64,000 bases of DNA from an archaeon. GTDB lineage: Archaea; Nanobdellota; Nanobdellia; Woesearchaeales; UBA9642. A program made the translations under genes and the position numbers. Location: assembly GCA_020057295.1 (NCBI GenBank), contig JAGVGF010000002.1, forward strand, positions 128,001 through 192,000. The letters are read 5' to 3'. This document shows positions 3,948 through 50,088 of the stretch, piece after piece. Every line of letters begins with the position of its first letter. The first letter of the stretch is position 1. Under the pieces are notes generated by a model. That model was not told the DNA's origin. It made no database searches and was given only the letters and a program-made list of their open reading frames with translations.

Positions 3948-3987
3948 TCGTGCTGTATATTGTTTTGAAGATTTAGATGATAAAAAT

Positions 3988-21900: not shown

Positions 21901-24356
21901 ATGTAAATATATCTGCACTTCAAAATAATCAAACAAGATATCTAATATACTATGATAATACAAGTACAACCTCTGCTACTCAAACAGTTCCATTAAAGGG
22001 AATAAATATTCAAAGAGATACTGTTTCTGCAACAGGAGCTACTCTTACTGTCGGCATTACTAGTGCAAATCGTAGTAAATCTTTCATTTTATTTACTTCA
22101 AGAGTTGGTTCAACAGGACCAAATCAACACGAGATAACCAGTGATATGCTTATTGATACTCAGATAAGATTCGAGAGATATCTTGGCACTACTGCTGCTA
22201 ATATTTATTGGCAATTAATAGAAGGTTCAGATATTAATGTTCAAAGAGGATTGACTTCTTTTATAGCTACAGACGCAAATATTAATGTAACTGTAAACTC
22301 TGTTAATTTATCAAATTCATTTTTGATAATTAATGGACGTGTTAATTCTGGAACCGCAGGTCAAGCACCTAGAGGAATATTTGAAGGACGATTTATTAAT
22401 TCAACAACAATTTCTCTATCAAGAGGAATTACGGGAACGGCAGCAATTGCGGGATGGCAAGTTGTTGAATGGTCTAAGACTAATGTTCAATCAAATAATT
22501 TAACTTTAACTGCTAATCCTGTTATTGTTAATATTAATCCTGTAGTTGTTAATAGATCTTTTTTAATAATATCTAGAACCACTACAGGAGATACTGGTGC
22601 AGATACCAATTATGTTTTAGGATATATAATAAATTCTACTGCAATAAATATTTCACGTGTTGGAACTACAGGTTCTACAGTTGTTACATGGTTTGTTGTT
22701 GAATTACCTAATGAATATTATATTCAATCAGGTCAAGTCTCTACAACAAATTCTGTAAACCAAGCAATAACTTCTGTGGATATGTCACAAACTTTTAATT
22801 CAGAATCTTGGTCTTCTACTCAGACAGGAACAACTTATACTAATGCAATGATGACTTCTTTTTTGACGAATTCTACTAATATGAATTATACAAAACAAAC
22901 CGCAGTAAATACAAATGTTATAGGATGGTTTGCAATACAATCAAGAGATCCACAATATTCTATAGATGATACTCATAAATTTATAACTCGAGAATCAAAT
23001 GTTACTGGAGCCCTCGGAACATATAATTTGGTTTGGAATACTGCTAATCAATCATTTGGAAATTATTCTGTTGTTGTGACAGCAACAAAAGCGAATTATA
23101 CTACCGCATATGATTATGGAACATTTGAATTAATACCTGATCAAACTCCCCCAAATGTTACTCTTTTAACTCCACTAAATGCTACGGTCTCTGGATCGGG
23201 ATATTTTAATTTTACTTATGTTCCATTTGATTTGACTCTCGCAAGTTGTACATTATATATGGATATAAACGGGATTTTTGGACCTCAAGCTACAAATCTT
23301 AGTCCAATAAATAATGCCTCAAACACTTTTTCTTCCATCTATGTTGGTGCGGGATTCTTTAATTGGAATATAAATTGTACTGATTTATATAATAATTCAG
23401 GATTCTCTCCTTATAATTATACTCTTAATATTACTGGACCAGACTTGGTTATTACAAGAGATGATATATGGTTTAGCAATGATTCGAGATTAGAATTTGG
23501 AAATATAACCTTATTTGCAAATATCACAAATCAAGGGTTGAGTCCAGCAAATAGATCATTCATTGTACAATTTTTTAGAGGAGATCCTGATACTACAGGA
23601 ATTCAAATCGGATCGAATATTACAATAATCAACATGACTGTCGGAGAAGTTATAACAATAAACACTACATATTTATTGACTTCTGGGTTAAATAATATTT
23701 TTGTGAAGTTGGATTCAAATAATTTATTAAATGAATCAGAAGAATCTAATAATAAAGCAAATAATAGTTTAAATATTGGACTATATCAATATTATTTTGG
23801 GAATGTGTCACGAAATTTTGTATTCGGATCTCCTTCTGGAAATTTAACTGTATTCTATTCAGAAGTTAATAGTACTCCTAATGGCTACTTATTTATAGCA
23901 GATGCAGATAGTGTCTTTTCGTTCGCAAATCTACAAGCATTGTCTAGAAATATAAATAATAATTCTGTAAATAATGATTTTTCTGATTTGGATATATCGT
24001 TGAATAGTACTGGATCTTCCGGCTCTATAAATGAAGTGTGGACCAATAATACAGATTCTCCTTTGCATGTTGATATAATTAATTTAACTTCAAAAATAAT
24101 AAACGATGTTCCTTTTATAAATAGCACTACGAATAGTAGTTTTGAAACAGGCATATTATGGGATACTAGTGATGATTTGTCATTAAACTTACAATATGAT
24201 CCCACAGATAAAGAAGATGTCGTATTTGTTACTAAAATATCGACACCAATGATTGGAAGTTATGGTACATACAATTACGAGTTGAAAATACCTTCCAACT
24301 TAAGATCTTATTCCGGTAGCGTTAATATGGTAACATTTTATTATGAATTGAAATAA
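15903..24356 (+). CDS. giant secreted glycoprotein/adhesin (2817 aa), paralog of the upstream gene, C-terminal A/B-subunit domain
   Basis: TAATG overlap with the upstream gene; signal peptide; shared LWKCKDWNF..Q.CFG.W and DPGFIET motifs; Ig repeats; PWWNTSFKYRK; CARDB; ends YELKIP...FYYELK. Confidence 0.85.
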   Translation: MNIHLPEYRKKNIILAETLKNTSLFVFFVTLLFLIVTPSVTSIPMMSFDKNYYVTNDVVSILTKDPSPLTISGSLTLEVSIKEDTNYYFKYLGSVNEIISFIPTQSGEYIFRLYNENGNLIDEKSFLVYDKSVDSCATHKLGSQILIDLEEYAFDLGSKLPSEIELIYSNALSTNKIVYNGGITPQIYYTPSIIGKYSLYADGIYLACYDIIDDFAIENSKIIHSTNENLNNITYLNNQISNQTSNSMNKTTFINGLNISLISNQYDSKNTSSIVIDLNNSLIQSETGRLKKKIILFKIKNSLNESLNADTFVYEKEKIVGTIQNTNSNNKDYASNVKDNILENNLLLNTRISVIDYTANTSISNNAYTPDFLVINDTSASLQNASLDADIEFVSGSVKKINFKNLEYKENMEVGVDEVTEKLSSNKLLEKSEKKELKAYAVNLYDLNFTAASFTSIAVGTELWKCKDWNFTTQSCFGTWSKLMDIIPGQEYNVSLFPGDPGFIETFDVNVAIDIDILALDNNTVVLAWIKNGTTVTGNFEIWNTNGSIIVNDTTFDAGMDTQSRVSLDLINTNDFIIASIDGSTNISNFYFYNRTGSMIQSATTISANVGDFNDLSVCQLGDRFIYSYIDANPAQFDGSFQIVNNSGNFIGTITDVDTTVTTTTALQNFVSCAAINITNWVYLYYDVTSSDVTLNARTNTGTNVVLTDLNANVGTTSQVAVATSRNEYIANLYYNSVAATQDVILNIRQLNGAVLTNIATVTPDATAGANIRLDIAEIDALGTSYFVPTWYDAGDTTIKAAVYNETGGQITAPFIVTTTPNTGYRIVAVAGYNSNAELGLCNGTFVIAYTNSSGNAIFNKYLINGSQWNGICPDVTPPTVNLTYPSNDSIVENNNISFNFTVIDDRDVVLPNCSLYTNFTGNFIINKTIYNVTSGIETSINVTNIDDGKYIWNIRCYDNSSNNAFAINAPNNFTLYINKNIPSITNPLINRTVLNQSNYVQLNVTISDSFGISNALLTMLYPNGTKINYTLSNSGNNYYYNFNNTVQLGIYNITLVWANDTLGQSNQNNTLILSFNVTASPPSDFNLLAPTNATVSTNLIPNMNWQQTTDETFANYTLILDKDSTFATPDYTYAISPITNTSYILGFALDVNSVYYWRVIAYDIFGNSKNSTNDFIYITDNSGPLITLNIPETNSFVLMSNVLFNYTPIDANTISNCTLYTNATGTFSPNQTNFTIANTLPNYLSMNLNDGYYLWNILCFDQVGNYKFSNNNFTLKIDTTPPNVTILNPQNNTYENNTNNVLFYGNATDVMTGVDNCSLIINNTVRQTKSVTEGIVFNFTEFVSNGNYVWNINCTDSNGFIGSSVNYFINVSVVDTNPPLIQLNTPTNNEYINTSTIIFNYTVDDASGIENCSIFIGGILNSTNYTVSNHQDNLFTISEFTFGTKNWRIACYDNTTERNYRLSSTRNFIVDLTNPVVTLNIPGNSTTPLYLNYSTIEFNYTPSDANLYSCALYANFTGSFIEEQINLTPTNSQNNYFTQTINDGNYAWNILCTDLSSRSSFALQNYLILVDTHAPDYSNINVSPYSNSPYNSSKKYFFNITWTDNFEISQVIFESDIDSYALYGISGNLTNYTINSSDLGSSKNYSINFTNIAAGNYVYTWYAIDAAGNLNKTELLTYNVSQENSSVNLLINGSDANFSINEGNYVNLTGTLLVPLIGVIDLYVGESLINSGIAPIYNITLFENPGIYNVTAFYNYSQNYSSSSDTHFVIVSDISSPLITLNVPITNSPIASGEITLQYIVNDKSDIANCSLYINGTLNQTDNSITRNVTQFFVVSLPQGNYTWTVDCYDNSSNHNYNISTTWIFRALDASVINLVVSPLESQYEIVENAIIEINTTGQFNDTLNTNFTADIIYGNTSLPWWNTSFKYRKNLLFTENYNNSRDVTMDVNITGLSALINNCTTQTRIVEIVIYNGTINQSIIPFEILSGDDSNNCFVRFNVNISALQNNQTRYLIYYDNTSTTSATQTVPLKGINIQRDTVSATGATLTVGITSANRSKSFILFTSRVGSTGPNQHEITSDMLIDTQIRFERYLGTTAANIYWQLIEGSDINVQRGLTSFIATDANINVTVNSVNLSNSFLIINGRVNSGTAGQAPRGIFEGRFINSTTISLSRGITGTAAIAGWQVVEWSKTNVQSNNLTLTANPVIVNINPVVVNRSFLIISRTTTGDTGADTNYVLGYIINSTAINISRVGTTGSTVVTWFVVELPNEYYIQSGQVSTTNSVNQAITSVDMSQTFNSESWSSTQTGTTYTNAMMTSFLTNSTNMNYTKQTAVNTNVIGWFAIQSRDPQYSIDDTHKFITRESNVTGALGTYNLVWNTANQSFGNYSVVVTATKANYTTAYDYGTFELIPDQTPPNVTLLTPLNATVSGSGYFNFTYVPFDLTLASCTLYMDINGIFGPQATNLSPINNASNTFSSIYVGAGFFNWNINCTDLYNNSGFSPYNYTLNITGPDLVITRDDIWFSNDSRLEFGNITLFANITNQGLSPANRSFIVQFFRGDPDTTGIQIGSNITIINMTVGEVITINTTYLLTSGLNNIFVKLDSNNLLNESEESNNKANNSLNIGLYQYYFGNVSRNFVFGSPSGNLTVFYSEVNSTPNGYLFIADADSVFSFANLQALSRNINNNSVNNDFSDLDISLNSTGSSGSINEVWTNNTDSPLHVDIINLTSKIINDVPFINSTTNSSFETGILWDTSDDLSLNLQYDPTDKEDVVFVTKISTPMIGSYGTYNYELKIPSNLRSYSGSVNMVTFYYELK

Positions 24357-31011: not shown

Positions 31012-31180
31012 GATTTAAGCAAAATGTTTTTTGTTAACGTTTTCGCGTAAGAAAACGATAAAAAATACAATAAATAAGCTAACAATCACAAATTAACTGT
31101 CAAGAATTGCTTGGAAATCTCGAAGGTGGAGACAATGTTCAAAGTAGATGTCTCTATGCACTTTTGAGGGTTGTGGATTT

Positions 31181-31780
31181 ATGGAACAAGAGACGTTATT
31201 CACGTCATCGAAATGGGACATCCTAAAATGTTTGGAATCAGCTAAAAAGTCACCATTAGATTTAGCTAAAGAAACGAATACTTCTGTTGCAAATATTTCT
31301 CAACAATTAAGATTATTAGAACTAGCCGGATTTGTAAAAAGTGAGAGAATCTCTAATAGAGACAAAGGTTTACCAAGAATTCTATACTCACTAGCGGAAA
31401 ATTATTCTTACCTTGTTGTATCAACTCCAGGATTTGTTGATAAAAAATTCTTAAAATTACAAGATTATCAAAAATGCACATTAAGAATATGGTTCTTAGA
31501 TAATCCTTCAGTACAAAGATATGTTGAAAGATTCTTCTGGAGTATTGAAAAGCATCTAGAAAAAATCGATATTCTAGCAATGGACACTAAAGATTCTAAC
31601 ACTATAAATGTATATATTTCTACAGCTAATGCTGATATAAAAAAATCCATTAAAGATTTAACTATAGATGGTCAAAATGGTTCGAAAAAATTTGTTGTAA
31701 CATTTGTCAAAGATCAAGATTTGAAGAAATTATCAAACTTATATGTTATTCATGATTCAAAAAATGTGGTGAACAAATAA
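31181..31780 (+). CDS. ArsR-like winged-HTH regulator with extra C-terminal domain
   Basis: KWDILKCL...SPLDLAKETNTSVANISQQLRLLELAGFVKS...GLPRILYSL; ORF 31148..31780, ATG 31181 the more likely start; next gene begins 2 nt after the stop. Confidence 0.75.
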   Translation: MEQETLFTSSKWDILKCLESAKKSPLDLAKETNTSVANISQQLRLLELAGFVKSERISNRDKGLPRILYSLAENYSYLVVSTPGFVDKKFLKLQDYQKCTLRIWFLDNPSVQRYVERFFWSIEKHLEKIDILAMDTKDSNTINVYISTANADIKKSIKDLTIDGQNGSKKFVVTFVKDQDLKKLSNLYVIHDSKNVVNK

Positions 31781-31781
31781 A

Positions 31782-32498
31782 ATGAATTTACTAAAAATAT
31801 TCGGAATAGTGCTGGTAAGCGTACTATCACTAGTATCAATAGCTTATGCCGTGCCAACTGGTCCGTCTAATATCAATGTAATCTCTAGTTCAAGATATCC
31901 TGTAAGTTCAGCAAGCAATCTTTCAGCTATAGCTGGTAATGTTACTGAAGTGAATTTCATTTCAAATGCTGTAACTCAGACTTGGCAAGGTTATTTTGGT
32001 AATGCTTCAGGTACTGTATTATTAGGAAATTCAAACAATCAAACATTATATGATTGGAGTCAGGCTTCACCATCTGGAGAGATTTATGCTACTAGATCCG
32101 TGTCTACTCCAACATGGGCCAATATTAGGTGTGCAAATGTAACAAATGTCGATGATGAAGATACTGCCTTAGGTGTTAATCAATCTACAGATCAGGACTC
32201 TGTGAATAAGACATTCCTAAATACCACTACATTCCCACAATTTTATGTTGGTTCAATTAATATTAATACAACACAATCATGTTATGCTACCGCATTACGT
32301 AATACAACAGGCATATCACAAAGCTTTAAGGAAGTACTTTTGCATGATAATGCCATGATGATATACACTGCATTGTTGACACAGGACTCTTTAGGTTTTG
32401 ACGGTGCTACTCACGATTTCGAGATGTTAGTAGGAGAAAATGGTCATTTAGGTGACACAAATCCTACACCTTATTACTTTTATTTGGAGCTACAATAA
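31782..32498 (+). CDS. secreted putative fibre subunit, subfamily A (A3)
   Basis: ...AYA|VPTGP; family A motifs; TAATG coupling to B3. Confidence 0.8.
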   Translation: MNLLKIFGIVLVSVLSLVSIAYAVPTGPSNINVISSSRYPVSSASNLSAIAGNVTEVNFISNAVTQTWQGYFGNASGTVLLGNSNNQTLYDWSQASPSGEIYATRSVSTPTWANIRCANVTNVDDEDTALGVNQSTDQDSVNKTFLNTTTFPQFYVGSININTTQSCYATALRNTTGISQSFKEVLLHDNAMMIYTALLTQDSLGFDGATHDFEMLVGENGHLGDTNPTPYYFYLELQ

Positions 32499-33253
32499 TG
32501 ATATACATAAAAGAAAAATGGATGGAGAATTTTATTAAAATATTGTTTATTATACTAATAGTTGCGTCTATAGTTAGTATATTTGGACAAGTTATCGCAT
32601 TACCAAGTGGTCCAACATTAAATTATTTATCTAATACCAGTGCTCCAACAATATCTACAAATAGATCTCAAGATATTAAAGGTACAATTACAACTATTAC
32701 TTTAAATCTTGCTCAACAAGATTATAAGTGGAAGGCTTACGTTGGTAATGTTACTGGTAGTTTAAGTTTAGATAATGCTAACAGCAAATCTATCTACGAT
32801 TGGGCATTAACAAGTATAACTGGAGAAGTATATGTATCCAGGGCTTCAACAGTTAATTGGAATAATATATCTTGTGTAAATCAGACTGTGATAAATTCCG
32901 AGCAAACAGCATTAGGAATTGCATCAAACATCCCAGACAGTATCAATGCTACTTTTAATAATTCAAAACACAAAAATTTTGTCGTGGCTACAGCCAACAT
33001 TACTAATAGTACATGCAGAGCAATAGCTACTTATCTTAATGATACTGCACAAACAGTCAATGAGACAGCATTATTCCAGGAAATTTTATTGAAAGATGAT
33101 ATAACTAATAGCATGGTTTATACTTCCATAATTGAACCAACTAAACCATTAGGATATGATGGTCTAAATAATTATAATTTTCAGTTATTAGTTGCGGAAA
33201 ATGAATCTGCAACAATACCTACAACATATTACTTTTATGTAGAGTTAGGATAA
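32498..33253 (+). CDS. secreted putative fibre subunit, subfamily B (B3)
   Basis: ...VIA|LPSGP; QQDYKWKAYVGNVTG; YYFYVELG. Confidence 0.8.
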   Translation: MIYIKEKWMENFIKILFIILIVASIVSIFGQVIALPSGPTLNYLSNTSAPTISTNRSQDIKGTITTITLNLAQQDYKWKAYVGNVTGSLSLDNANSKSIYDWALTSITGEVYVSRASTVNWNNISCVNQTVINSEQTALGIASNIPDSINATFNNSKHKNFVVATANITNSTCRAIATYLNDTAQTVNETALFQEILLKDDITNSMVYTSIIEPTKPLGYDGLNNYNFQLLVAENESATIPTTYYFYVELG

Positions 33254-33254
33254 A

Positions 33255-34184
33255 ATGAAAAAATCGACTAATATACCAATAATCGTAGCATTGTTAATAG
33301 TAGTTGCTATATTATTTTTTGTAGTTCCTACTTCATTTGCTGCAAATATTGTTGGTACAAATTATAAAAATGTAACTGTACGTACTTCTGTAAATATTAC
33401 TAACTCTAATCCTGAAGTCTTAGCATTAGTGGCTTATGATACATCTAATGTTTCATTGAATAATATTACAGTAAATGCTGGCGCGTTGAAATCTATTAGT
33501 TGTAATGCTAGTGTTAGAGATTGGAATGGTTATAATGATATAACTTTAGTATCTGCAACTCTATATCACATTACCAATAATTCAATTGGTCCTAATAGCA
33601 ACAACACTCATTATACTAATTCATCTTGTACATTAAATGCAAGTACAGGAACATATACTGGATGGTATACTTGCACTTTTGATTTATTATACTATGCTAA
33701 CAATGGTACATGGACATGTAATGTTACTGCTAGAGATACTTATAGTAAAAATGGATCATTAACAAATACTACTTATTTGTATCCTGTTTATGCATTAAAT
33801 ATTACTGATGGCATAGATTACGGTCCTGTTGCTGTAGAAACATTTTCAAGTGATATTGGAGCAAACATTACTAACTTTGGTAATATGAATATTAATATCA
33901 CTGTAGAAGGTTATGGTGTTACTCGTGGTGATGGTTTGGCAATGAATTGTACTATTAATGGTAATATCACTGTCGGTAATGAGAAATTTGCTACAAGTGC
34001 AGGAGTAGCTTATGCTTCAAAAAATAATTTAACAAGTTCAGCAGCTCTTATTCCAGGATTGATGATGCCTAAGCAATCTAACGATACGCAAGTGATTAAT
34101 GCTACATACTGGCAATTATATATCCCTCCAAATCCTGCTGGTAACTGTACAGGATTTGTAATATTCAGTGCGGAAGCACCATAA
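33255..34184 (+). CDS. secreted putative fibre subunit, family C (C1)
   Basis: ...SFA|ANIVG.NYKN; CNASVRDWNG; YANNGTW.C; YALNITDGIDYG; YWQLY...C.GF.IFSAEAP; six conserved Cys. Confidence 0.8.
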   Translation: MKKSTNIPIIVALLIVVAILFFVVPTSFAANIVGTNYKNVTVRTSVNITNSNPEVLALVAYDTSNVSLNNITVNAGALKSISCNASVRDWNGYNDITLVSATLYHITNNSIGPNSNNTHYTNSSCTLNASTGTYTGWYTCTFDLLYYANNGTWTCNVTARDTYSKNGSLTNTTYLYPVYALNITDGIDYGPVAVETFSSDIGANITNFGNMNINITVEGYGVTRGDGLAMNCTINGNITVGNEKFATSAGVAYASKNNLTSSAALIPGLMMPKQSNDTQVINATYWQLYIPPNPAGNCTGFVIFSAEAP

Positions 34185-38913: not shown

Positions 38914-41904
38914 ATGTTCACTAACAAAATATTTAAGGATATTGTATTGGAAAAGGTTGTATTACTAATAGTTCTAGTTATGTCGCTATTTTTAGTATCA
39001 TTATCATTTGTATTAGGTCAAGTAGCAATTCAAACAGTAGATATTCCTCCTTCGATTGATGAAAATACTATGTTGAATATTTATTTTGATGCAACAACAG
39101 ATTTAAGTACAACTATCAATTATTCAATATATGAAAATGGTATTTTAGTTTCTAACAATAACAGCTTCAGTAATTTTTTCAATTACACATCGGCTGGTTC
39201 ATATTTGTTTACACTATATGCCTCTGATGGTGTTACACTATATTCAGAGAATAACACAGTTGAAGTATTAAATATTCCTTTAACTATAGTGCTTAATAAT
39301 CCTAATAATGGTGTAGTTAATTCTAAGAATATTTTAATAAATTCTACGTTATCCACTTATGCTGATGCATGTACTTACTCGATAAACAATTCTATAACTG
39401 GAACGTTAACTAATTATAACAACAATTTATTTTACAAATATATTACTCTTAACTCTGACGGGGCATATTCTTTAATTGTTAATTGCTCAAACATTTATGA
39501 TACTATAAGTACTTCGACATCTTTTACTGTTGATACTACTAACATTGCTGTTCTATCAAAATCGTATACTATAGGCAATAATAACGTTGTTACATTTAAT
39601 CTTACTACAAATATGCCGGGTATATGTAAATACGATTCCTCAGACAAGAGTTATGATTCTATGTCTTTAACTTTTACTAGTACTAACGATGTAAAACATT
39701 CAACAGCTATTAATGGTCTATCTGATGGATCCTACATGTATTATATTAAATGTAGAAATGTTTATGATAATATTACTTTAACAAATACTGAAGGAATTTC
39801 TTTTGTAGTAGCTAATAAACCTGTGGCTAGTATTTCTTTAAGTAAGAGTCCACCATTAAAAGCCGGAACTTATGAGGTCAGACTAACAACAAGTAAATCT
39901 GTACCTATTGCTCCAAGTTTGTATTATAATTTTAATACTGACGCTTCAGCAAGATATGTGACATTAACTGGTTCTAATACTGAATGGAAAGGGTATATTA
40001 TAATTTCTGAAAGTACTAGTGGCATGATTGGTACATTTCACTACAGTTCTAATGATGGTTTTGGAAATATTGGGAACACTATTAGTAATGGAGAAATATT
40101 CTTGATTGATACAATCAAACCTATTAGTTCTAGTAGTTTACAGTCTGTAGTTCAAGATGATGGAACTATACGTTTAAAATGGTATTATGATGGTGAAGAA
40201 GTTAGTAGATATAATATTTATAGATCAACCAATAACAATGTTGATTATGTTGATTATTATGACAGTGTAAATTCGCAGCAATATGTTGATCGTGATGTCA
40301 TCAATGGAATAACATACTATTATAGAATTGCAGCTGTTGATAAAGCTGGTAACGATGGTATATTATCAGAGATAGTTTCTGAAACATCTACTAAAAATTA
40401 TGTTGTTAATACTGCAGATAATACTATAACTGTACAGAAAAGTTTAGATGGTGCATTAGTTCCTAAGATTGATCAATTAGTATCTGAATTAGAAAAATAT
40501 GTTGTAGATATCGATACACAGAAATCTTTGTTAGAAGAAACAAACGATCCTAATAAATTAAAGATTATTACTTTATTAAAACTTAACGATAAAGCAAAAA
40601 CTGCTAAAGTAACTCTTAATGCTATAATTACTCAAGTTAAAGATATTAAGAATCAGGATATTAAATCTTCAGAATTAGATGTGAGATTGAATAAGTTGAG
40701 AATGGATGCAATTAAAGCTAAATCTATGGTTGCTGAGGATATTGTTGTTAGTGAACAGTCTAATTATGATCAAGTGACTCAAGAATCTGACGTTGACGAT
40801 GCTATTAGTCAAATTGTTAATCTTAATCTTTCTAAGACTGTTTTAGAAAATTATTCTATAAGTAACAAAAAATTACAAGATTTTATTACCATAAATACTG
40901 ACATAATGATTTTCAAAATACAATATATGGGTAAGGATGATTATGATAAATATACGCTTGTGAAAAAAATCGTCAGTAGTTCTCAAGATTTAAAGGATAT
41001 AGTAATTATTGAAAATATACCTAAAAATTTTGAGACAAAAGCATCTAATATTATTTTTGATATTGATAGTCAACAAAAGCCATCAATTGTTAAGGAAGAT
41101 CCAGTATTGCAATGGAGTGTTGATGCATTTAATAAGCAGACTATATATTATATGATTAATAATCATGTTGATATTTCCTACGCTAAAAATACTAGAACTA
41201 TAGTTTTATATAAACCAACTTTTAAATTTACGCAAACGCTAAACACTGATTCTGGTAACACATTCAATGCTTTAACAGGATTTATAGAATTGGATGTTGG
41301 TGATGTCGGAAAAATATCTATGATGCAATGGTTGGTTCTTATTGGTGTAGCATTAATCATAGGATTGTCTACTTATTATGTTGCTTTAGATCGTAAGGAG
41401 AAGAAACGCAATGTTCAACGTGTTAAAGATCATAAAATAATACTTCCGAATAAGGTGTCGCAGAATAAAATTGTCGCAGTTACAAAACCTGTGGCCTTAA
41501 CTCAAGTAAATACTATAAAGTTTAATCTTAACAAGAAACTTGTAGATGCTAATACTTTAATAAATAATTTTGATTATGAAAATTCTAGAATTGTATATAA
41601 TCAATGTATGCAAGCATATAATCAAACGGTTTTTAAGGATTCTACAGAGCGTTCCGATGTCAAAAATATGTTGAACCATCTGTATATAAAATTAACCGCA
41701 TATAGACTTATTTATGAATCTAGAAAAAATGTACATTCTAGAAATTATGTTAAATTACGTCAGGATTTGAAAAACATTAACGAACTATATACTAAATTAT
41801 ATCGTTCATTAGAACATGTTGATGAAGATAATAAGGTTTCTGAACGAAAGTTTGTAGATTATGTTGCTAATTCACGAAGATATCTAGAAGGAGTGGCTTC
41901 ATAA
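38914..41904 (+). CDS. membrane-anchored surface protein: Ig/FN3 domains, coiled coil, TM, cytoplasmic helical tail
   Basis: Signal peptide; LKW...YNIYRS...YYYRIAAVDKAGN FN3 motif; coiled coil; IIENIPK module; TM WLVLIGVALIIGLSTYYVAL. Confidence 0.75.
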   Translation: MFTNKIFKDIVLEKVVLLIVLVMSLFLVSLSFVLGQVAIQTVDIPPSIDENTMLNIYFDATTDLSTTINYSIYENGILVSNNNSFSNFFNYTSAGSYLFTLYASDGVTLYSENNTVEVLNIPLTIVLNNPNNGVVNSKNILINSTLSTYADACTYSINNSITGTLTNYNNNLFYKYITLNSDGAYSLIVNCSNIYDTISTSTSFTVDTTNIAVLSKSYTIGNNNVVTFNLTTNMPGICKYDSSDKSYDSMSLTFTSTNDVKHSTAINGLSDGSYMYYIKCRNVYDNITLTNTEGISFVVANKPVASISLSKSPPLKAGTYEVRLTTSKSVPIAPSLYYNFNTDASARYVTLTGSNTEWKGYIIISESTSGMIGTFHYSSNDGFGNIGNTISNGEIFLIDTIKPISSSSLQSVVQDDGTIRLKWYYDGEEVSRYNIYRSTNNNVDYVDYYDSVNSQQYVDRDVINGITYYYRIAAVDKAGNDGILSEIVSETSTKNYVVNTADNTITVQKSLDGALVPKIDQLVSELEKYVVDIDTQKSLLEETNDPNKLKIITLLKLNDKAKTAKVTLNAIITQVKDIKNQDIKSSELDVRLNKLRMDAIKAKSMVAEDIVVSEQSNYDQVTQESDVDDAISQIVNLNLSKTVLENYSISNKKLQDFITINTDIMIFKIQYMGKDDYDKYTLVKKIVSSSQDLKDIVIIENIPKNFETKASNIIFDIDSQQKPSIVKEDPVLQWSVDAFNKQTIYYMINNHVDISYAKNTRTIVLYKPTFKFTQTLNTDSGNTFNALTGFIELDVGDVGKISMMQWLVLIGVALIIGLSTYYVALDRKEKKRNVQRVKDHKIILPNKVSQNKIVAVTKPVALTQVNTIKFNLNKKLVDANTLINNFDYENSRIVYNQCMQAYNQTVFKDSTERSDVKNMLNHLYIKLTAYRLIYESRKNVHSRNYVKLRQDLKNINELYTKLYRSLEHVDEDNKVSERKFVDYVANSRRYLEGVAS

Positions 41905-41950: not shown

Positions 41951-43786
41951 TTATTCTTTCTTTTCTTCAACAACAGGTGTTTCACTTTTAACTTCATGCG
42001 TGTGTTTATGTTTCCTGCTGTATAATGATTGTCCACATTTAGCGCATTTTCTTCTGAGCCTTGAATTTTTATGTCCGCAATGTGGACACTTTCTTCTGCC
42101 GAATATTATTAATAGTAATAGTATTATTATTAATATTATCAATCCGTATGTTACATAATCAAAGCTCACTAATTTGAATGCGTATTCTCCATACACTGTT
42201 TTTATTAGAGCGTTCTCTCTTTGTCCATAATATCCTTTAACTTTTACCAAAGGATTATTTTGTATATCAGCATCACTCATTACTACTTCTACAGGTATCT
42301 TTGTCTTGTCTCCTATTTTTAGTAATACTGCTTCCGGTGATGATATTGTGATATATTCTCCATTGATATATAGATCTAGTATTTCTAAACTAACATAACT
42401 ATCTACTGTGCCTATATTTTGAATTGTGATTATGAATTTACCTTTACCCTTATCATATGAGACATCTGTTATATTTATTCTGGAATCATCTAATATTTCT
42501 ACATTCTCAACCGATATATCTCCTTCTAAAACGTTTTCTAGTGATCTTTTACCTTCACCAAATAATGTATATATTTTAGCTGTAATATTTTCTCCTTCTA
42601 GAACTACATCATAAGTTATTGTTTTATACTGGTTCTTATCTATAAATATTGGATCTTGATCTCCAACAACCTTATTTTGTCCATTAGCGGTTATGGTTAT
42701 AGTTCCTTTTAAATATGCTCCCAGATTTGCCTTGTTCTTATATGTTACCCATAAAGAATTTGTGGCTTTATTATACATTATACTATATATTCCTAAGTCT
42801 ACTGCATATCTCGGCATCTGAAATTTATCTAAGTCTTCTACTGTTGCTATTGGTCCAGTAGGCGTTCTTGAACCTTGTGCAAATTTCACGAATACACTTA
42901 ATCCTAACTGTCTTCTTATAGCCGTTGCAGAATTTATTAGTTCGTTTCCTATTAATACTGCTACTTGAAAATCTGATGCTTTAATATATTCTTGTACTTG
43001 AGATGGTACTGTTCCTCTACCAATAAATAATACAGGATCATCTCCCGACATTATGCTCGATTCTATGAATTCTCCATTGCTCATTAATATTTGCTTAGAG
43101 TTTCTGACTTTTTGATATAATTTTACTATTTCTATATTATTATCAAATCTATCTCCCTTATTTATTGTTTCTGGATTATATTTTGCGAGTCTCGTTTTTA
43201 CAGCTTCATCTACCTGTCCAAGTATTATTAATTTACTAGGTTTTGCATCTGTTAAGAATGTATCTACAGCTCCTATGTTTCGTTCACTAGTAAATATTAC
43301 ATAATACTTATCTATAACAGCATATGATGCTGCTGATAATGCATTATATCCGTAAGCATCATCTACTATAATATATTTAGTTACTATTTTATCTTTGTTT
43401 AATCTTTTTGCCAGGTCTAAATTTGCCGTGTTTGTAACTATCTCTTCTACATTAGTATATCCTTGAGCATCCATTACACTTTTATAATTTATGACATAGG
43501 GTTGTGATCTTGATGATACTATTAACGTTCCGTTAGCTTCTTTTGGTATAGAATATAGTAGTATTGTTCCATGCCTAGAACTTGTTAGAAACAAGCCTGG
43601 TTTCTTATCAATCAGACTAGCATATAACGTTGCAGAGTATACATCTTTCCAATCTGCAGAATTTGAAACAACTTTTTCTAAAGCTAAACTTGATGGAATA
43701 CATATCAATATCATAAGAACTATTATAACTAATGATGTTTTGTTAATAAAACTATTTTTAGACGTATTACCAAAAGTATTATTCAT
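41951..43786 (-). CDS. secreted protein with cell-wall-binding-repeat-2-like domains, Ig/CARDB-like domains, C-terminal TM and Zn-ribbon
   Basis: LIILGQVD...KGDRFDNN resembles the CWB2 G.DR motif; TM followed by CPHCG...CAKCG; GGTGA RBS; divergent from C2. Confidence 0.7.
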   Translation of the reverse strand: MNNTFGNTSKNSFINKTSLVIIVLMILICIPSSLALEKVVSNSADWKDVYSATLYASLIDKKPGLFLTSSRHGTILLYSIPKEANGTLIVSSRSQPYVINYKSVMDAQGYTNVEEIVTNTANLDLAKRLNKDKIVTKYIIVDDAYGYNALSAASYAVIDKYYVIFTSERNIGAVDTFLTDAKPSKLIILGQVDEAVKTRLAKYNPETINKGDRFDNNIEIVKLYQKVRNSKQILMSNGEFIESSIMSGDDPVLFIGRGTVPSQVQEYIKASDFQVAVLIGNELINSATAIRRQLGLSVFVKFAQGSRTPTGPIATVEDLDKFQMPRYAVDLGIYSIMYNKATNSLWVTYKNKANLGAYLKGTITITANGQNKVVGDQDPIFIDKNQYKTITYDVVLEGENITAKIYTLFGEGKRSLENVLEGDISVENVEILDDSRINITDVSYDKGKGKFIITIQNIGTVDSYVSLEILDLYINGEYITISSPEAVLLKIGDKTKIPVEVVMSDADIQNNPLVKVKGYYGQRENALIKTVYGEYAFKLVSFDYVTYGLIILIIILLLLIIFGRRKCPHCGHKNSRLRRKCAKCGQSLYSRKHKHTHEVKSETPVVEEKKE

Positions 43787-44045: not shown

Positions 44046-44978
44046 ATGATTAAATCAAATAGTATCCTATTAGTGATATTGACATTTCTACTTGTTGGTT
44101 CTATATTAACCATTCTGCCTGTATCCTTTGCTGCAAATATTGTTGGTGGTAATTATAAGAATATTACAGTCCATACTTCTGTTAACATTAGTAATTCTAA
44201 TCCTGAAGTTTTAGCAATGATAGTATATGATACAACTAATGTTTCCTTGAACAATCTCACTCTTAATGCGGGTGCAACAAAATCTATTACATGTAATGCT
44301 AGTGTTAGAGACTGGAATGGATTTAATGATATTGTTAAAGTAAATGCAACATTGTGGCATGAAGCAACATCAACATATAATGCCAGTAATGATAATAGTT
44401 CGCATTATACTAACACTTCATGCATTCTAAATTATAGCACAGGAACGTATACTGGTGTTTATACATGTACCTTTGACACAATGTATTATTCAAACAATGG
44501 TACGTGGATATGTAATGTTACAACTACTGATAATTATAATGCTACAGGATCACTAACGAATACAACATATATTTATCCATTGTACGCTTTAAACATTACT
44601 GATGGAATTGATTATGGTAATGTTCCTGTTGAAGGAATGTCAAACGATATTCAAGCTAACATAACTAATTTTGGTAACATGGGAATCAACATTAGTGTAG
44701 AAGGATATGCTATTACTAGAGGTGATGGTCTGGCAATGAATTGCAGCATTTTTGGTAATATTCCTGTAAATTATGAAAAATTCGCTCTGGATAATAACAC
44801 TGTTTATGCTTCGAAGAATACATTAACCACTACTCCCGGAATGATTCCTGGATTGACAATGCCAAAACAAATTAATAGTACATTGATACTTAATTCAACA
44901 TATTGGCAATTATACATTCCACCAAATCCAGCAGGTAATTGTTCAGGATTCATAATATTCAGTGCAGAAGCACCATAA
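44046..44978 (+). CDS. secreted putative fibre subunit, family C (C2)
   Basis: Colinear paralog of 33255 and 47928; ends IFSAEAP; T-tract follows. Confidence 0.8.
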   Translation: MIKSNSILLVILTFLLVGSILTILPVSFAANIVGGNYKNITVHTSVNISNSNPEVLAMIVYDTTNVSLNNLTLNAGATKSITCNASVRDWNGFNDIVKVNATLWHEATSTYNASNDNSSHYTNTSCILNYSTGTYTGVYTCTFDTMYYSNNGTWICNVTTTDNYNATGSLTNTTYIYPLYALNITDGIDYGNVPVEGMSNDIQANITNFGNMGINISVEGYAITRGDGLAMNCSIFGNIPVNYEKFALDNNTVYASKNTLTTTPGMIPGLTMPKQINSTLILNSTYWQLYIPPNPAGNCSGFIIFSAEAP

Positions 44979-45073: not shown

Positions 45074-47830
45074 TTGATCGCTAAGGGTGGGTGTTTGAAG
45101 AAATTATTTTATAAAAAAGTACTATTTATGTTGTGCTTGTTTGTATTATCATTAATTATTCTTGATACTGTTATTGCTGTAGATGGATTTGTAGCATATA
45201 GATCAAATACTGGAGTAAGTACGACTAGTTCTCCTAAAATTCGTTATTGGAATAATACTGCGAATGCAGGGAATGGTTCTTGGAGTGCTGAAATTGAACT
45301 TGCAAGTGCAGGCAGCCCTGTAAGATTTGTTGTATTAAAGCAATCACCTGTCGATTCTAAAATCGTTCTTGTAACATCAAGCGATGATGGAAATATGGAT
45401 GGATATATTTGCATGAAAAATTGTGATAATGCGAGTTATTGGGATTATACTTCTAATATCGGAACTGTCAGTTTGGTTTCTTCTCAAAGAGGATTTGACA
45501 TTGCGTTCGAATCCAATAGCGGTGATGCACTGCTCGTGTATGGAATTGTGAGTGCAAATGCCGCGCAAGATTTAGCATTCCAAGAGTTGCCTGTTTCAAC
45601 AACAAGTTTTAACGGATTAACGGAACAATATATTAATGATGGAGGACATGCTACTGATCTTGTATATATGTGGATAGGGATGGATAATAATCCATTGACA
45701 ACATCTAATGAAATAATTATTGCAGCATTCGATGATACAAATAATGATTATAATGCATGGGTATGGAGCGGTTCAGCATTTGGAGCGTTAAATGCTATCA
45801 CAACAGGAGCTACAGGAACATCAAATAGAGAGGCTCATGCTGTGAGATATGCTGCGGATGGAAGCAAAGGAATGGTTGTAAGCGGTACTGGTGGAGCTGG
45901 AGCGATAAATTCTGAGTATTGGAGTGCAGGCGCTTGGACCGTTGTTGCAGCTATAGATGAAGATGCAGGTGATGGAGCTGCAGATGTTCAATGGCTTAGT
46001 TTGAAAGCAGATCCGTCAACAGATGATTTGCAACTCGTTTTTCAGGCAAGCACTTCAGACTTGGGAACCGCGTACTGGAATGGTGGACCTACATGGGCTG
46101 TAACTTCGAACATTGACACAGGAGTTGATGTTGCAACGGCACGAACTGCAGATTTTTCATGGAATCCTACTGGAAGTACCGGACAATTAGTTTGGGATAC
46201 TGATGGTGCTGGAACAACATTAAGTCAAAGAACCTGTGCTCCGCAATGTACTGCTGCAGGATTAACTGTTTCAACATATGCTGGAACTGGTGCATGGGTA
46301 ACTTTATTTAGAAATCCCACTACTGAACTCGTAAAATTTTTAGGATTTAGATTAAACAATGCATTCGATATAGGATCGTTCTGGTATAATGGAACTGGAG
46401 CCCTTAATTATACTAATTATGCAGACAATGTGATAACAGGAGACACGACAGTTACAACATTCGAATCGTATTTCTTTGATTATAGAAGAGATGTTCGTCC
46501 ACCCGGATTAACAATTATCACGCCTAATCAGAGTAATATACTTCAATGGCAAAATTATATTTATTTTAATATGTCATCGAATGAGTATTTATCAATTGCA
46601 ATCCTTGATTTTAATGGAACAAATTATACTATGAATATGTCAACAGATATGAATTGGTATTATAATCTGACGAGCTTGAACGAAGGTTTGTATTCGTACA
46701 AAATTTATGGAATTGATCTGGCTAATAATACTAATGTTACGCCAACTTGGAATATCACTATAAATTTTCCACCGAATATAACTTTAATTAATCCTCCTAA
46801 TAATACGTTAAATATTACGACTGGGAATATTACTTTTTATTATAATGTTACTGACACTTTAAATAATGTTAGTACTTGTTCTTTAATTATTGATGGACTC
46901 TTTGGTGTCGTTAATACAACAACCAGTCCTGTTAATGAAACGACTACACTAAATTTTACGTACTTATTAACTAATGGTCAACACAATTGGAGTATATGGT
47001 GTAATGATACAAACAATTTTAACAGCACATCAGAAATGAGAAATATTACTATAGCTCTTGATCCTATTATATTATCGATGGATATAACAGATAATCTTTT
47101 ACCTTCAGGCGAAGTAATACTTAATGCTGGGTCAACTAGATTTGTGAATTGTACTATAATAGCTAGCGATCCACAAGGTACTGGAAATATTGCTAATGCC
47201 ACGGCAATGTTCTATTATTATTTAAACAAATCTAATGATCCAGATGATAATTGGGTACATTATACTAACACTTCATGCGTTGTTGCAAATATTACGTTGC
47301 AGAACAAAACTTTTAGTTGTGGTTTTTATCCATGGTATTATGCTAATAATGGTACATGGTATTGTAACGCTACTATAACAAATAATGATTCTTTATCAGC
47401 ATCTAATAATACTTCAACAATTATACAGTCTTTATATGCTTTGAACGTTACAGATGGTATTGATTTTGGTAATGTGGAATCTGAAGTTTCCTCGCTAAAT
47501 GTTACAGCAAATATTACTAACATTGGCAACATGGCAGTAAATATAACAATACAAGGATATGCTTTAGCTATTGGTGATAATACAGGAATGAACTGCAGTG
47601 ATAATACTAATATCACAATTACTCGAATAAAATTTTCTAAAATTACTACTGACGATTACACGACTAAAACCTCTTTAACTGGCAGTGTTCAAAATTTAAA
47701 TTTACAAATCCCTCGTCAAACAAATTTAACTCAAATGATTAACACTACTTATTGGCAAGTTAATCCAGATCCAGGAATATCAACAAGGATATGCACAGGA
47801 TACGTGATATTTACTGCTGAGGTTCCATAA
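45074..47830 (+). CDS. secreted adhesin: propeller-like head, Ig repeats, C-terminal family-C subunit domain
   Basis: Signal peptide (TTG start, probably 45095 after GGGTGG); C-terminal part aligns to family C (YANNGTWYC, YALNVTDGIDFG, YWQV...ICTGYVIFTAEVP). Confidence 0.8.
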   Translation: MIAKGGCLKKLFYKKVLFMLCLFVLSLIILDTVIAVDGFVAYRSNTGVSTTSSPKIRYWNNTANAGNGSWSAEIELASAGSPVRFVVLKQSPVDSKIVLVTSSDDGNMDGYICMKNCDNASYWDYTSNIGTVSLVSSQRGFDIAFESNSGDALLVYGIVSANAAQDLAFQELPVSTTSFNGLTEQYINDGGHATDLVYMWIGMDNNPLTTSNEIIIAAFDDTNNDYNAWVWSGSAFGALNAITTGATGTSNREAHAVRYAADGSKGMVVSGTGGAGAINSEYWSAGAWTVVAAIDEDAGDGAADVQWLSLKADPSTDDLQLVFQASTSDLGTAYWNGGPTWAVTSNIDTGVDVATARTADFSWNPTGSTGQLVWDTDGAGTTLSQRTCAPQCTAAGLTVSTYAGTGAWVTLFRNPTTELVKFLGFRLNNAFDIGSFWYNGTGALNYTNYADNVITGDTTVTTFESYFFDYRRDVRPPGLTIITPNQSNILQWQNYIYFNMSSNEYLSIAILDFNGTNYTMNMSTDMNWYYNLTSLNEGLYSYKIYGIDLANNTNVTPTWNITINFPPNITLINPPNNTLNITTGNITFYYNVTDTLNNVSTCSLIIDGLFGVVNTTTSPVNETTTLNFTYLLTNGQHNWSIWCNDTNNFNSTSEMRNITIALDPIILSMDITDNLLPSGEVILNAGSTRFVNCTIIASDPQGTGNIANATAMFYYYLNKSNDPDDNWVHYTNTSCVVANITLQNKTFSCGFYPWYYANNGTWYCNATITNNDSLSASNNTSTIIQSLYALNVTDGIDFGNVESEVSSLNVTANITNIGNMAVNITIQGYALAIGDNTGMNCSDNTNITITRIKFSKITTDDYTTKTSLTGSVQNLNLQIPRQTNLTQMINTTYWQVNPDPGISTRICTGYVIFTAEVP

Positions 47831-47927: not shown

Positions 47928-48872
47928 TTGGTGGGTGGTATATTGAAAGATACCTCACGGTATGTTTTTATGGTGTTTGTGATAGTTTTGTTGTTTATTA
48001 TAGTATTATTGCCGTCGAGTATTGCTCCAAATATTGTTGGCAGTAATTATAAAAATGTTACTGTGATGACTAAATTAAATATTAGTAATTCTAGACCAGA
48101 AATATTGTCGATGATTGTATATGATGCTACTAATTCTTCATTATTTAATATTACTGTAAATGCAGGCGCATTTAAAACTATAAGTTGTAATGCTAGCGTT
48201 AGAGACTGGAACGGATTCAGTGATATAACTAATGTTAATGCAACGTTATATCATATTACTAATAATTCCATCGGTCCCGACAATAACAATACACATTATA
48301 CTAACACTTCATGTAATCTGAATGCTAGCACAGGAACGTATACGGGATGGTATGTTTGTAATTTCGATGTTATATATTATGCTAATAATGGTACATGGAA
48401 TTGTAATGTTACTTTAAAGGATACAAAAAATTCTACAGGATCACTCTATAATTCAACTTTCTTGTATGGTGTTTATGCACTGAACATCACTGACGGTATA
48501 GATTATGGCAGTTTGTTAACTGGCGATTTTTCTAATAATCTTACAGCCAACATAACTAATTTTGGTAATATGGGAATTAATGTTAGTGTAGAAGGATACG
48601 CTTTTACTAGAGGTGATGGTCTGGCAATGAATTGTAGTACTAATGGTAATATAACTGTTGGTAACGAAAAATTCTCTACATCTCAAGTAGATTATGCTTC
48701 TAAAATTGCGCTAACTAGTTCTCCGGCACTGATTCCTGGATTGACAATCTCAAAACAAATCAACGATACAGTTGTTGTTAATACTACTTATTGGCAATTA
48801 TATGTTGATTCAACAAATGTTCCAGCAGGAATATGTACTGGATTTATAATATTTAGTGCAGAGGCACCTTAG
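47928..48872 (+). CDS. secreted putative fibre subunit, family C (C3)
   Basis: Paralog of C1 and C2; TTG start, probably 47943 after GGTGG; ends IFSAEAP. Confidence 0.8.
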   Translation: MVGGILKDTSRYVFMVFVIVLLFIIVLLPSSIAPNIVGSNYKNVTVMTKLNISNSRPEILSMIVYDATNSSLFNITVNAGAFKTISCNASVRDWNGFSDITNVNATLYHITNNSIGPDNNNTHYTNTSCNLNASTGTYTGWYVCNFDVIYYANNGTWNCNVTLKDTKNSTGSLYNSTFLYGVYALNITDGIDYGSLLTGDFSNNLTANITNFGNMGINVSVEGYAFTRGDGLAMNCSTNGNITVGNEKFSTSQVDYASKIALTSSPALIPGLTISKQINDTVVVNTTYWQLYVDSTNVPAGICTGFIIFSAEAP

Positions 48873-48873
48873 A

Positions 48874-50088
48874 ATGAATATTATTAAAAAAAATATTTAT
48901 ATTATATTAACATTAAGTTTTGTTCTATGTCTATTATTGGTTGGTGTTGTTAATGCTGTAGGTATTTCTGTAACTAAAGGAGAAATAATTTTTGGCAATG
49001 TTTTAAAAGATGGTTATGCTGAAGATACATTTTTTGTATCTACTGATGCGCCATTTGACGTTCCTTTATCTTATGAATTAGGTGGCGATATTAAGAAATG
49101 GGTTACTATAGATCCTGATCTTAATGATCCGAACATAACAGTAACTGTTAATAATACTAAATATCAACCTATTAGAGTAGTTATTACTCCTCCAGCAGAT
49201 ACGCCTATTGGTGATTACACAGGTTTTATCAGAATAATTACTGGGGCAATAAATAAACCTGGAGGACAATATGGTACTAATCTTCAGGCAGCGTTTCTTG
49301 TTAGAATAAGAATTAGTGTTACAGGTACAGAATATCTTTCTTGCAGTGCTGGAGGTATAATTATTAGAGATACTGAAGTTGGTATGCCTCTAGAGTATTA
49401 TATGTCAGTTAGTAATAGTGGAAATATACGTGTTCGTCCGAATGCTACTGTTGATATTTGGAATCAGGATCAGACAAAATTATTAACAACAAAACAATTG
49501 TTATTTAATGATGTTGAGGTTTTACCGACAACTTCTAAAGCATTTACTAACAAATTTGGTGCAGATCTTCGTGTAGGACAATACTGGGGATACGCTACAG
49601 TATATCCTTGTGAAACTACACAATTAGTAACGTTCAATGTCTATGAAAAGGGTGGAATAGTAGATAATGGTGACTTTATTAGAATTGATAATCCTTCATG
49701 GGCAAAAATTGGTGATGTTTTACCAATAGCAGCAGTGTTCAAAAATCTTGGTACACGTACGGTTAGCGCAAAATTCAAAGGAGTCATAACTTCTGATAAT
49801 AGGATTATTGAAACTATAGACACCGAATTTTATGATGTTGCACCAGGAGAAATTAGCACTATACAAACATATTTTACACCTAAAAAATTAGGACAATACA
49901 TTATTACTGGTAGAATATTATATAATAATAAGTTAAGTTTTGAAAAAAGCTCTGTCATAACTGTTAATGAAGGTGTAGAATCACAATTTAGTTGGATATA
50001 TATTTTGATACTAATAATTATAATAATAGTTATATTACTATTGTTAATACGTATTAGAAAAAAGAAACATAAAATTAATAGATTATAA
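48874..50088 (+). CDS. membrane-anchored multi-Ig protein; candidate assembly chaperone/anchor (DUF916/WxL-interacting-like architecture)
   Basis: ATG 2 nt after the C3 stop; signal peptide then VGISVT; PADTPIGDYTGFI; NSGNIRVRP...VLP motif; C-terminal TM plus basic tail. Confidence 0.7.
   Translation: MNIIKKNIYIILTLSFVLCLLLVGVVNAVGISVTKGEIIFGNVLKDGYAEDTFFVSTDAPFDVPLSYELGGDIKKWVTIDPDLNDPNITVTVNNTKYQPIRVVITPPADTPIGDYTGFIRIITGAINKPGGQYGTNLQAAFLVRIRISVTGTEYLSCSAGGIIIRDTEVGMPLEYYMSVSNSGNIRVRPNATVDIWNQDQTKLLTTKQLLFNDVEVLPTTSKAFTNKFGADLRVGQYWGYATVYPCETTQLVTFNVYEKGGIVDNGDFIRIDNPSWAKIGDVLPIAAVFKNLGTRTVSAKFKGVITSDNRIIETIDTEFYDVAPGEISTIQTYFTPKKLGQYIITGRILYNNKLSFEKSSVITVNEGVESQFSWIYILILIIIIIVILLLLIRIRKKKHKINRL

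Follow-up and report, generated by a model that had tools for sequence, protein, structure and literature searches.

Chaperone-usher pili of the type 1 and P kinds carry the tip adhesins FimH and PapG on a shaft of FimA or PapA subunits, and are served by the chaperones FimC and PapD, with PapH as a terminator. The tip adhesins have a defined polarity, in which the binding part comes first and a subunit-like tail, devoid of the N-terminal extension, comes last. We know of no archaeon with an outer membrane of the chaperone-usher kind. To our knowledge, archaea of the DPANN group (Diapherotrites, Parvarchaeota, Aenigmarchaeota, Nanoarchaeota and Nanohaloarchaeota) live attached to other cells, but little is known of the molecules through which they do so. 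We analysed a stretch of 64,000 nucleotides (hereafter the window) from a member of the Woesearchaeales (NCBI GenBank assembly GCA_020057295.1, contig JAGVGF010000002.1, positions 128,001 to 192,000), which sits on contig 2 of a 1.2-Mb genome in 6 contigs with ~30% G+C. Three of its genes encode free subunits (C1, C2 and C3) and a fourth encodes a 918-residue adhesin-like protein (AD918) that ends in the same two-domain module (the C module, domains D1 and D2); a membrane-anchored helper (o410) is encoded beside them. With a probability of about 0.5, C1–C3 form the shaft, and AD918 the FimH/PapG-style tip, of an undescribed surface fibre of Woesearchaeota-type DPANN archaea that is Sec-secreted, N-glycosylated and linked by donated strands.

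The likeness to chaperone-usher pili is one of layout. As a putative tip, AD918 has a head and a stalk followed by a subunit-like tail without an N-terminal extension, and the free subunits bear a conserved N-terminal extension (the leader) with alternating hydrophobic residues, a resemblance of sequence pattern only. Secretion is by Sec signal peptides, and an immunoglobulin (Ig)-like helper is encoded beside the subunit genes. Chaperone-usher pilins have a single, truncated Ig fold where the C module is modelled as two sandwiches that look complete, and no sequence or specific fold relation was found between the two. There is also no outer membrane and no usher here, the usher not having been searched for; the helper o410 is membrane-anchored, the host is archaeal, and the proteins are heavily N-glycosylatable.

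Pam pili belong to ultra-small episymbiotic bacteria of the Candidate Phyla Radiation, which lack an outer membrane, and all of their parts carry Sec signal peptides (PMC13278184). The tip pilin PamT has no donated strand, PamC and PamD are PapD-like chaperones with a C-terminal membrane helix, and the anchor PamR has an extra N-terminal strand and, as an Ig-type helper, a C-terminal membrane helix; conservation is highest in the donated strand and at the site that binds it (PMC13278184). AD918 resembles PamT in having no leader, and the topology of o410 (Ig-type domains, C-terminal helix) is that of PamC, PamD and PamR. The differences are that the donated Pam strand is an interdomain linker received by a truncated Ig C-terminal domain, whereas the candidate strand of C lies at the mature N-terminus and no truncation is visible; that PamT is a single domain without a head; and that the Pam system is bacterial, with no homology to the present proteins detected. 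In lifestyle and envelope, the Pam pili are the nearest analogue.

Tat-fimbriae (Tafi) of haloarchaea and DUF1102-type fimbriae also work by strand donation, with a major subunit, a two-domain tip and a one-helix membrane anchor (PMC11821415, PMC12337348). TafC starts with its pilin-like domain, which bears the donor strand, and finishes with a laminin-G-like head; the anchor TafF is a strand acceptor (PMC11821415, PMC12337348). AD918 has the reverse order, with the head first, the subunit-like module last and no leader; secretion of the haloarchaeal fimbriae is by Tat, and C1–C3 and AD918 have no Pfam match to DUF1102 at E up to 0.1. Sulfolobus threads (Saci_0406, with the putative cap Saci_0405) and TasA-like bundling pili are Sec-dependent, highly glycosylated and have an N-terminal donor strand (PMC9715654, PMC9245690); the proposed thread cap retains its tail and has no acceptor site (PMC9715654). 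A putative terminal protein encoded beside the subunit gene is common to the threads and to our locus. The thread cap is the reverse of AD918 and has no large head, and the threads gave no fold match among those listed. Membership of C and AD918 in any of these fimbrial families is unsupported, and the resemblance is one of design only. No published description of such a system in DPANN archaea or Woesearchaeota was found in the literature searched.

The genes of the locus and their parts are as follows:

33255..34184, forward strand: C1, free subunit of 309 residues, with a Sec-type signal peptide, the leader, D1 (residues 54-176) and D2 (residues 181-307)
33342..33413, forward strand: leader of C1 (residues 30-53, ANIVGTNYKNVTVRTSVNITNSNP), the candidate donor strand
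44046..44978, forward strand: C2, free subunit of 310 residues
44133..44204, forward strand: leader of C2 (residues 30-53)
45074..47830, forward strand: AD918, adhesin-like protein of 918 residues, with a signal peptide and without a membrane anchor
45185..46423, forward strand: head of AD918 (residues 38-450), all-beta and propeller-like by AlphaFold model and Foldseek
46505..47053, forward strand: stalk of AD918, two Ig-like domains (residues 478-563 and 568-660), the second Big_7-like
47060..47830, forward strand: C-like tail of AD918 (residues 663-918), with D1 (665-784) and D2 (790-916), by alignment and AlphaFold model
47928..48872, forward strand: C3, free subunit of 314 residues counted from the TTG at 47928
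48027..48098, forward strand: leader of C3 (residues 34-57, PNIVGSNYKNVTVMTKLNISNSRP)
48874..50088, forward strand: o410, 404 residues from the ATG at 48874, with a signal peptide, Ig-like domains and a C-terminal membrane helix

A preliminary description of this DNA, made from its letters alone, had placed AD918 between C2 and C3 with a TTG start and had its tail matching the C family from DPIILSM onward. The coordinates of the open reading frames (ORFs) bear out the position and the start codon, and the tail does align with C1–C3 from DPIILSM (residue 663, nucleotide 47060) to the end ...YVIFTAEVP, with six cysteines (C83, C125, C140, C155, C232 and C298) invariant across C1–C3 and the tail in a MAFFT alignment. 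In that four-way alignment, identity to C1 is 37% for the tail and 68% for each of C2 and C3. By BLASTP, AD918 residues 648-918 match C3 40-314 (41.2% over 279 columns, E 1.5e-52), residues 681-918 match C1 71-309 (41.7% over 242 columns, E 1.8e-49) and residues 663-918 match C2 52-310 (39.3% over 262 columns, E 8.9e-48). Judged from the sequences, the likeness is far above chance. Four copies of the module, in C1, C2, C3 and the AD918 tail, are all that the whole genome holds.

The same description had the leader, ANIVG.NYKN.TV.T.VNI, missing from AD918. As such it is indeed absent; the aligned place is not empty, however. NFNSTSEMRNITIA of AD918 aligns weakly with NYKNVTVMTKLNISN of the C3 leader (BLASTP), and in the AlphaFold model it makes up the F-G loop and the closing strand (E656-660) of the Ig domain that precedes D1. 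The strand RNITI (residues 656-660) of the second stalk Ig domain stands where the leader would be, and other long proteins that end in the C module (the long forms, as opposed to the free, short forms) have the same pattern, ...NWSVNCTD..G...SS..RN[IL]T[IV]....P, immediately ahead of D1. In the model this strand is part of another domain and continues into D1 without a hairpin. From the patterns and the model together, the leader of free subunits is probably the counterpart of the last strand of an Ig domain that long forms hold in cis.

Signal-peptide cleavage of C1 after SFA, predicted by reading the sequence, leaves the 24-residue leader ANIVGTNYKNVTVRTSVNITNSNP. Across 120 close homologues, conservation within the free subunits is highest in this leader (mean top-residue frequency 0.77, entropy 0.98), ahead of D2 (0.73, 1.09), D1 (0.66, 1.41) and the signal peptide (0.36, 2.52). 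N36, T44 and P53 are invariant, V40, V42, V46 and I48 are conserved, and positions 43 and 45 are free, as in a strand that is buried on one face. Two N-glycosylation sequons lie in the leader. The AlphaFold model of C1, built from a 39-sequence alignment (mean predicted local distance difference test, pLDDT, 87.9), comprises a signal helix (residues 6-23), a low-confidence coil (residues 24-53, block pLDDT 49-71) and the two beta-sandwiches D1 and D2. A sortase-like covalent link through the lysine of NYKN was also considered and dropped: position 38 is lysine in only 58-68% of homologues and arginine in 21%.

Co-variation was measured in 182 short forms (effective number of sequences 167) by mutual information with average product correction. 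G186 and N297, two loop residues of D2 that are also coupled to each other, co-vary with N31, the second residue of the mature chain (z 4.4 and 4.3), and N50 couples with the D1 loop residues D89 (z 6.0), N91 (z 4.7) and D161 (z 4.2). The signal looks real: a number of the top-scoring pairs are on adjacent hairpin strands in the model. In the common Ig topology, the loops of D89, N91 and D161 would be at the N-terminal end of D1, and the couplings are compatible with a leader lying along a D2. N50, D89, N91 and D161 (33402-33404, 33519-33527 and 33735-33737) also make up a tightly co-varying Asn/Asp cluster, placed where the leader ends and at one end of D1; it could be a metal site or a junction with a preceding domain.

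The family is large and nameless. A near-length homologue search returned 485 proteins, every named one of which is called "hypothetical", and a longer-length search returned 31 proteins of 562-1445 residues, with 75-97% of C1 covered. Searching 1.84 billion representatives with a profile gave 1521 matches at E ≤0.001, 1040 at 1e-10 and 400 at 1e-30. We gathered 295 proteins with the C module, which is nearly complete in 288 (189 short, 99 long). The module finishes 0-7 residues before the C-terminus in 288/288 and at the very end in 228. Tandem D1 domains were found in 3/295 proteins and two D2 domains in none (0/295). P0253, P0278 and P0318 have two or three extra D1-like domains ahead of the terminal D1–D2; D1 can act as a stalk repeat, D2 being single and always last.

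Long forms range from 414 to 4139 residues (median 647). None has the leader, either by a strict motif (0/31) or at ≥15 bits with a leader hidden Markov model (HMM) (0/98); the strict motif matched just 52 of the 120 close short forms because the pattern was too narrow. Positions conserved at ≥0.8 in both forms number 32, with a single class-specific position in short forms and none in long forms, which leaves the leader as the only systematic difference between the two. On trees of D1–D2, the short/long label changes 20 times as against 82 in shuffles (288 rows, FastTree), and, with 94 of these rows drawn at random, 9 times as against 31.8 (IQ-TREE quick). AD918 falls in all-long clades (support 95 and 100) and C1–C3 fall in all-short clades. 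This clustering and placement argue that the long tails specialised long ago as a lineage of their own, and did not arise by recent copying of the neighbouring subunits. A module that is strictly C-terminal, with a leader missing only in long forms, suggests a polar, end-defined assembly.

The AlphaFold model of AD918 (31 long homologues, mean pLDDT 79.8) has a signal helix, an all-beta region at residues 38-450, two Ig-like domains and the tail of D1 and D2, whose strand order is the same as in C1 (pLDDT ~90). The best Foldseek matches of the model are integrin alpha, SorCS2 and ROS1/Sevenless, which have a beta-propeller head on Ig or FN3 legs (E ~1e-12), at template modelling (TM) scores as low as a flexible chain of several domains would be expected to give (0.2-0.27). 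In view of these low scores, we call the head propeller-like, a propeller being unproven. Against atlas clusters, the head matched BNR_4 at 0.89, which is a lead only. Residues 567-638 of the stalk match Pfam Big_7 at 18.8 bits, below the gathering threshold of 24.1 (E 0.0026), and the AlphaFold model supports the Ig-like fold of this domain. The heads of 32 scanned long forms gave Big_7 in 4 (counted at E ≤0.001), Beta_helix in 3, MG2 in 2, and Laminin_G_3, Big_13, Wzt_C and DUF4625 in 1 each.

Across 201 genomes sampled from the phylum, the C profile has matches in 28, of which 26 are strong and all in the order of the window genome. Twenty-two of these 26 genomes hold both a free form (~310 residues, matching from the start of the profile) and a long form (574-4152 residues), whose frames match only from profile positions 33-72. 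Strong homologues of o410 (E up to 1.5e-61), mostly in single copy, occur in all 26 C-bearing genomes; weaker look-alikes occur in 13 further genomes without C.

The ATG of o410 (48874) is one base after the stop codon of C3. The protein begins with a signal peptide, continues with Ig-type domains and closes with a membrane helix and a basic tail; its sequons are few. Pfam-type matches in its family are to CARDB (15/36), HYDIN_VesB_CFA65-like_Ig (14/36) and ASH (4/36), most of them below cut-offs, and the PDB profile search returned nothing for o410 (best E 0.38). Comparison of the C and o410 families by hhalign gave just a 14-column N.GN motif at a probability of 20%. In 15/26 genomes, the start of o410 is ≤253 nt downstream of a gene for the C module, in either a free or a long form. 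Among 20 loci fetched from other genomes for gene order, the long form is followed directly by o410 in seven (G090, G172, G044, G024, G117, G072 and G139) and with one gene in between in G035 and G116. Three others (G092, G169 and G050) have C followed by a giant protein, and a long form of 570-590 residues beyond one to three further genes. A public Woesearchaeota record has the same order of C, long form, C and o410 in consecutive locus tags. Few sequons and a single copy suit o410 as a candidate for either a tethered assembly chaperone or a basal anchor.

Three o410 homologues contain one in-frame TAA each (G172:C13:11254-12450, G116:C12:17694-18860 and G069:C19:29263-30423), and at locus L017 the gene is split into two ORFs; these may be broken genes or assembly errors. 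Public records assign P0107, P0222 and P0236, members of the C and o410 families, to Alphaproteobacteria, Allocoleopsis and Bacteroidota. They probably come from mis-binned contigs, all other named members being Woesearchaeota or Nanoarchaeota.

On the proposal of a strand-linked fibre, the free subunit would consist of its 24-residue leader followed by the two Ig-like sandwiches D1 and D2. The leader would be an orphan counterpart of the last strand of the Ig domain found in cis before D1 in long forms, and would bind in trans to the D2 of a neighbouring subunit, by insertion or by edge augmentation, so that subunits are joined head to tail into a filament in preference to some other oligomer. 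AD918 would accept one leader through its D1–D2 and donate none. As it could accept but not give a leader, it would occupy one end only and display its head on the Ig stalk. The co-inherited and membrane-anchored o410 would act as the tethered chaperone or the basal anchor. Since C1–C3 and AD918 have no membrane anchor, they must be retained by protein contacts. Sequon densities, at 7.0-7.1 per 100 residues in C1–C3, 5.0 in AD918, 0.7 in o410 and 0.2-0.7 in the window's cytoplasmic proteins, fit exposed shaft and tip proteins with a membrane-proximal helper.

Several observations weigh against a strand-linked fibre. D1 and D2 of C1 and of the AD918 tail model as confident, complete-looking sandwiches without an extra strand, and no acceptor groove was seen in the AlphaFold models, whose coordinates themselves were not inspected. 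The preliminary description had staked its donor strand on a leader that does not fold into its own chain and on an adhesin tail that is incomplete without it. In the two monomer models the former holds (the leader is coil at pLDDT 49-71) and the latter does not appear to (the tail looks complete without it at pLDDT ~90). The couplings of N31 and N50 do not discriminate between a trans contact and a cis fold-back along own D1 to own D2. Only the close subfamily has the full 24-residue leader: the leader HMM reached ≥15 bits in just 14/74 distant short representatives, where it is insensitive, and distant short forms keep the core ...T.VN[VI][TS]N..P. Three long forms (P0256, P0263 and P0265) keep a leader-like YG.RNNY..Y.TRT.VN[IV][TS].A.PEILN in cis before D1; they could be self-complemented, or stand midway between the free and the fused forms. 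Among the 26 strong genomes, three have short forms only (G016, G017 and G173, all fragmented assemblies) and one is undetermined, its gene being cut by a contig end (G177). Free C genes are most often in an operon with two genes of another family, A and B, and C might belong to an A/B structure.

The searches for relatives point the same way. C has no sequence relative in the PDB profile search (best E 0.46), C1–C3 have no Pfam match, and an NCBIfam search of AD918, C1, o410, A, B and o996 (a membrane protein of the window) returned nothing. No pilin family was prominent in three fold searches of the C1 model, whose domains match complete Ig-like domains (for example Z 9.7, root-mean-square deviation 2.5, 98 residues aligned).

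Of the alternatives, the likeliest by a narrow margin has D1–D2 docking one to one on o410 or another wall component, with long forms as adhesins held to the cell in this way, free C acting as small docked lectin-like proteins or regulators and the leader forming a hairpin on its own D1. The presence of o410 and C together in 26/26 genomes, and their adjacency in 15/26, speak for it, as do the identical constraints on the module in short and long forms and the complete-looking models; the coupling of N31 to D2 loops fits such a fold-back too. We nevertheless regard it as unlikely. AlphaFold left the leader, the best-conserved segment, off its own chain, and the equivalent strand in long forms belongs to another domain and enters D1 without a hairpin. 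A genome has one o410 as against one to three free C proteins and one or two long forms, so that clients would outnumber docks.

The C1 model matches generic Ig-like sandwiches, namely alpha-2-macroglobulin MG domains, carbohydrate-binding modules, RbmA and Fab constant domains, with Z up to 10.4. CFA/I pilins stand at Foldseek ranks 9, 17 and 28 among such generic Ig matches (E ~1e-4, TM 0.33-0.39). TasA-like, thread, cannula and Tafi subunits are not among the fold matches listed for C1, an absence that does not exclude them. Atlas look-ups returned unnamed Nanobdellota clusters of the own family only, the nearest named one being WxL at 0.75, again a lead only. A domain of an S-layer protein (7ptp, Z 9.1) is also among the many generic Ig matches, and the C subunits could potentially build a two-dimensional surface layer or a closed oligomer, with long forms as spikes and o410 as a membrane stalk in the manner of SlaB and SlaA. 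The subunits would suit a layer in being Ig-like, heavily glycosylatable and without an anchor, in having complete-looking domains with no groove, and in having a single-copy membrane-anchored partner in 26/26 genomes. The family is found in 28/201 genomes, however, which is few for a main wall layer, and the mature subunits are small (~280 residues). The C-terminal position of the module in 288/288 proteins and the leader missing only from long forms point instead to a polar assembly, and we consider a layer or closed oligomer rather improbable.

The weakest alternative, that C is an adaptor or terminal subunit of an A/B structure, draws on its place as the last gene of a recurrent o210-A-B-C operon and on the A/B family being present in 23/26 C-bearing genomes, and it is very unlikely in view of the 34 genomes that have A/B without C, the exact tracking of C by o410, the long-form partner that C has of its own, the A/B-like ends that giant proteins of the window carry, and the lack of detectable similarity between the C and A/B families in a BLASTP-type comparison.

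A wider form of the strand-linked fibre proposal may tentatively be put forward, and we hold it to be less probable than the fibre itself. The fibre would then be an attachment organ of Woesearchaeota, glycosylated, assembled at the cytoplasmic membrane without an usher or sortase, with o410 as chaperone or anchor and with exchangeable heads (propeller, beta-helix, lectin-like) on a FimH-style tail. If so, it would be an independently evolved archaeal counterpart of chaperone-usher pili and of the Pam pili of Candidate Phyla Radiation bacteria, made from a protein family without known relatives, and would give a direct handle on how DPANN cells hold their hosts. Strand linking, if true, would by itself add a further independent archaeal origin of donor-strand fibres, the first with FimH-like tip polarity, and the variable heads could be mined for host specificity. 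The C module, long form and o410 are in any case a conserved and wholly unannotated gene set, the architecture of which predicts a shaft, a tip and a membrane partner.

The A/B genes lie directly upstream of C1, which is the last gene of their operon:

31148..33253, forward strand: o210, A (31782..32498) and B (32498..33253)

The product of o210 is a helix-turn-helix protein with a weak ArsR/Lrs14-type match below cut-off. The order o210-A-B-C recurs in the window and at seven other loci (L016, L018, L019, L022, L027, L028 and L033). The A/B family is present in 57/201 genomes, and the C, long form and o410 genes form a coherent unit of narrower distribution nested in A/B-bearing genomes. This separate phyletic distribution makes a second, separable system reasonable.

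Two giant secreted proteins of 4003 residues (3892-15903) and 2817 residues (15903-24356), with 5.5-6.1 sequons per 100 residues, have an A/B-like domain at their C-terminus (hhalign probability 96.9%, E 1.7e-10), in which some 45 residues from the mature start of A/B are missing. The preliminary description had seen the same design in both families, and these shortened A/B-like ends confirm it for the first. It had also cast AD918 as the tip adhesin of a second fibre. The architecture of head, Ig stalk and leaderless tail, the pairing of forms in 22 of the 26 genomes and the separable distribution agree with that view; the linking of subunits by strands is the part of it that the models do not bear out.

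The first start in the AD918 frame is the TTG at 45074, and a second in-frame TTG at 45095 lies right behind GGTGGGTG. The latter is the more likely start, as MKKLFYKK... is a more usual beginning for a signal peptide; the codon is TTG in both cases. The arrangement in C3 is as in AD918, and its start is likelier at the TTG at 47943, behind GGTGGGTGG. A scan for bacterial-type promoters and terminators was uninformative here, the host being an archaeon. Between C1 and C2, the window encodes two membrane proteins that are conserved neighbours of C genes in other genomes. One is o996 (38914-41904, forward strand), of 996 residues, which has a helix in the middle of the chain and a long coiled tail in the cytoplasm, and the other is a 611-residue protein (41951-43786, reverse strand) with a C-terminal helix and a zinc ribbon. 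The o996-like proteins found elsewhere have a terminal domain of ~70 residues that is also present in the 389-residue and 172-residue proteins of the window.

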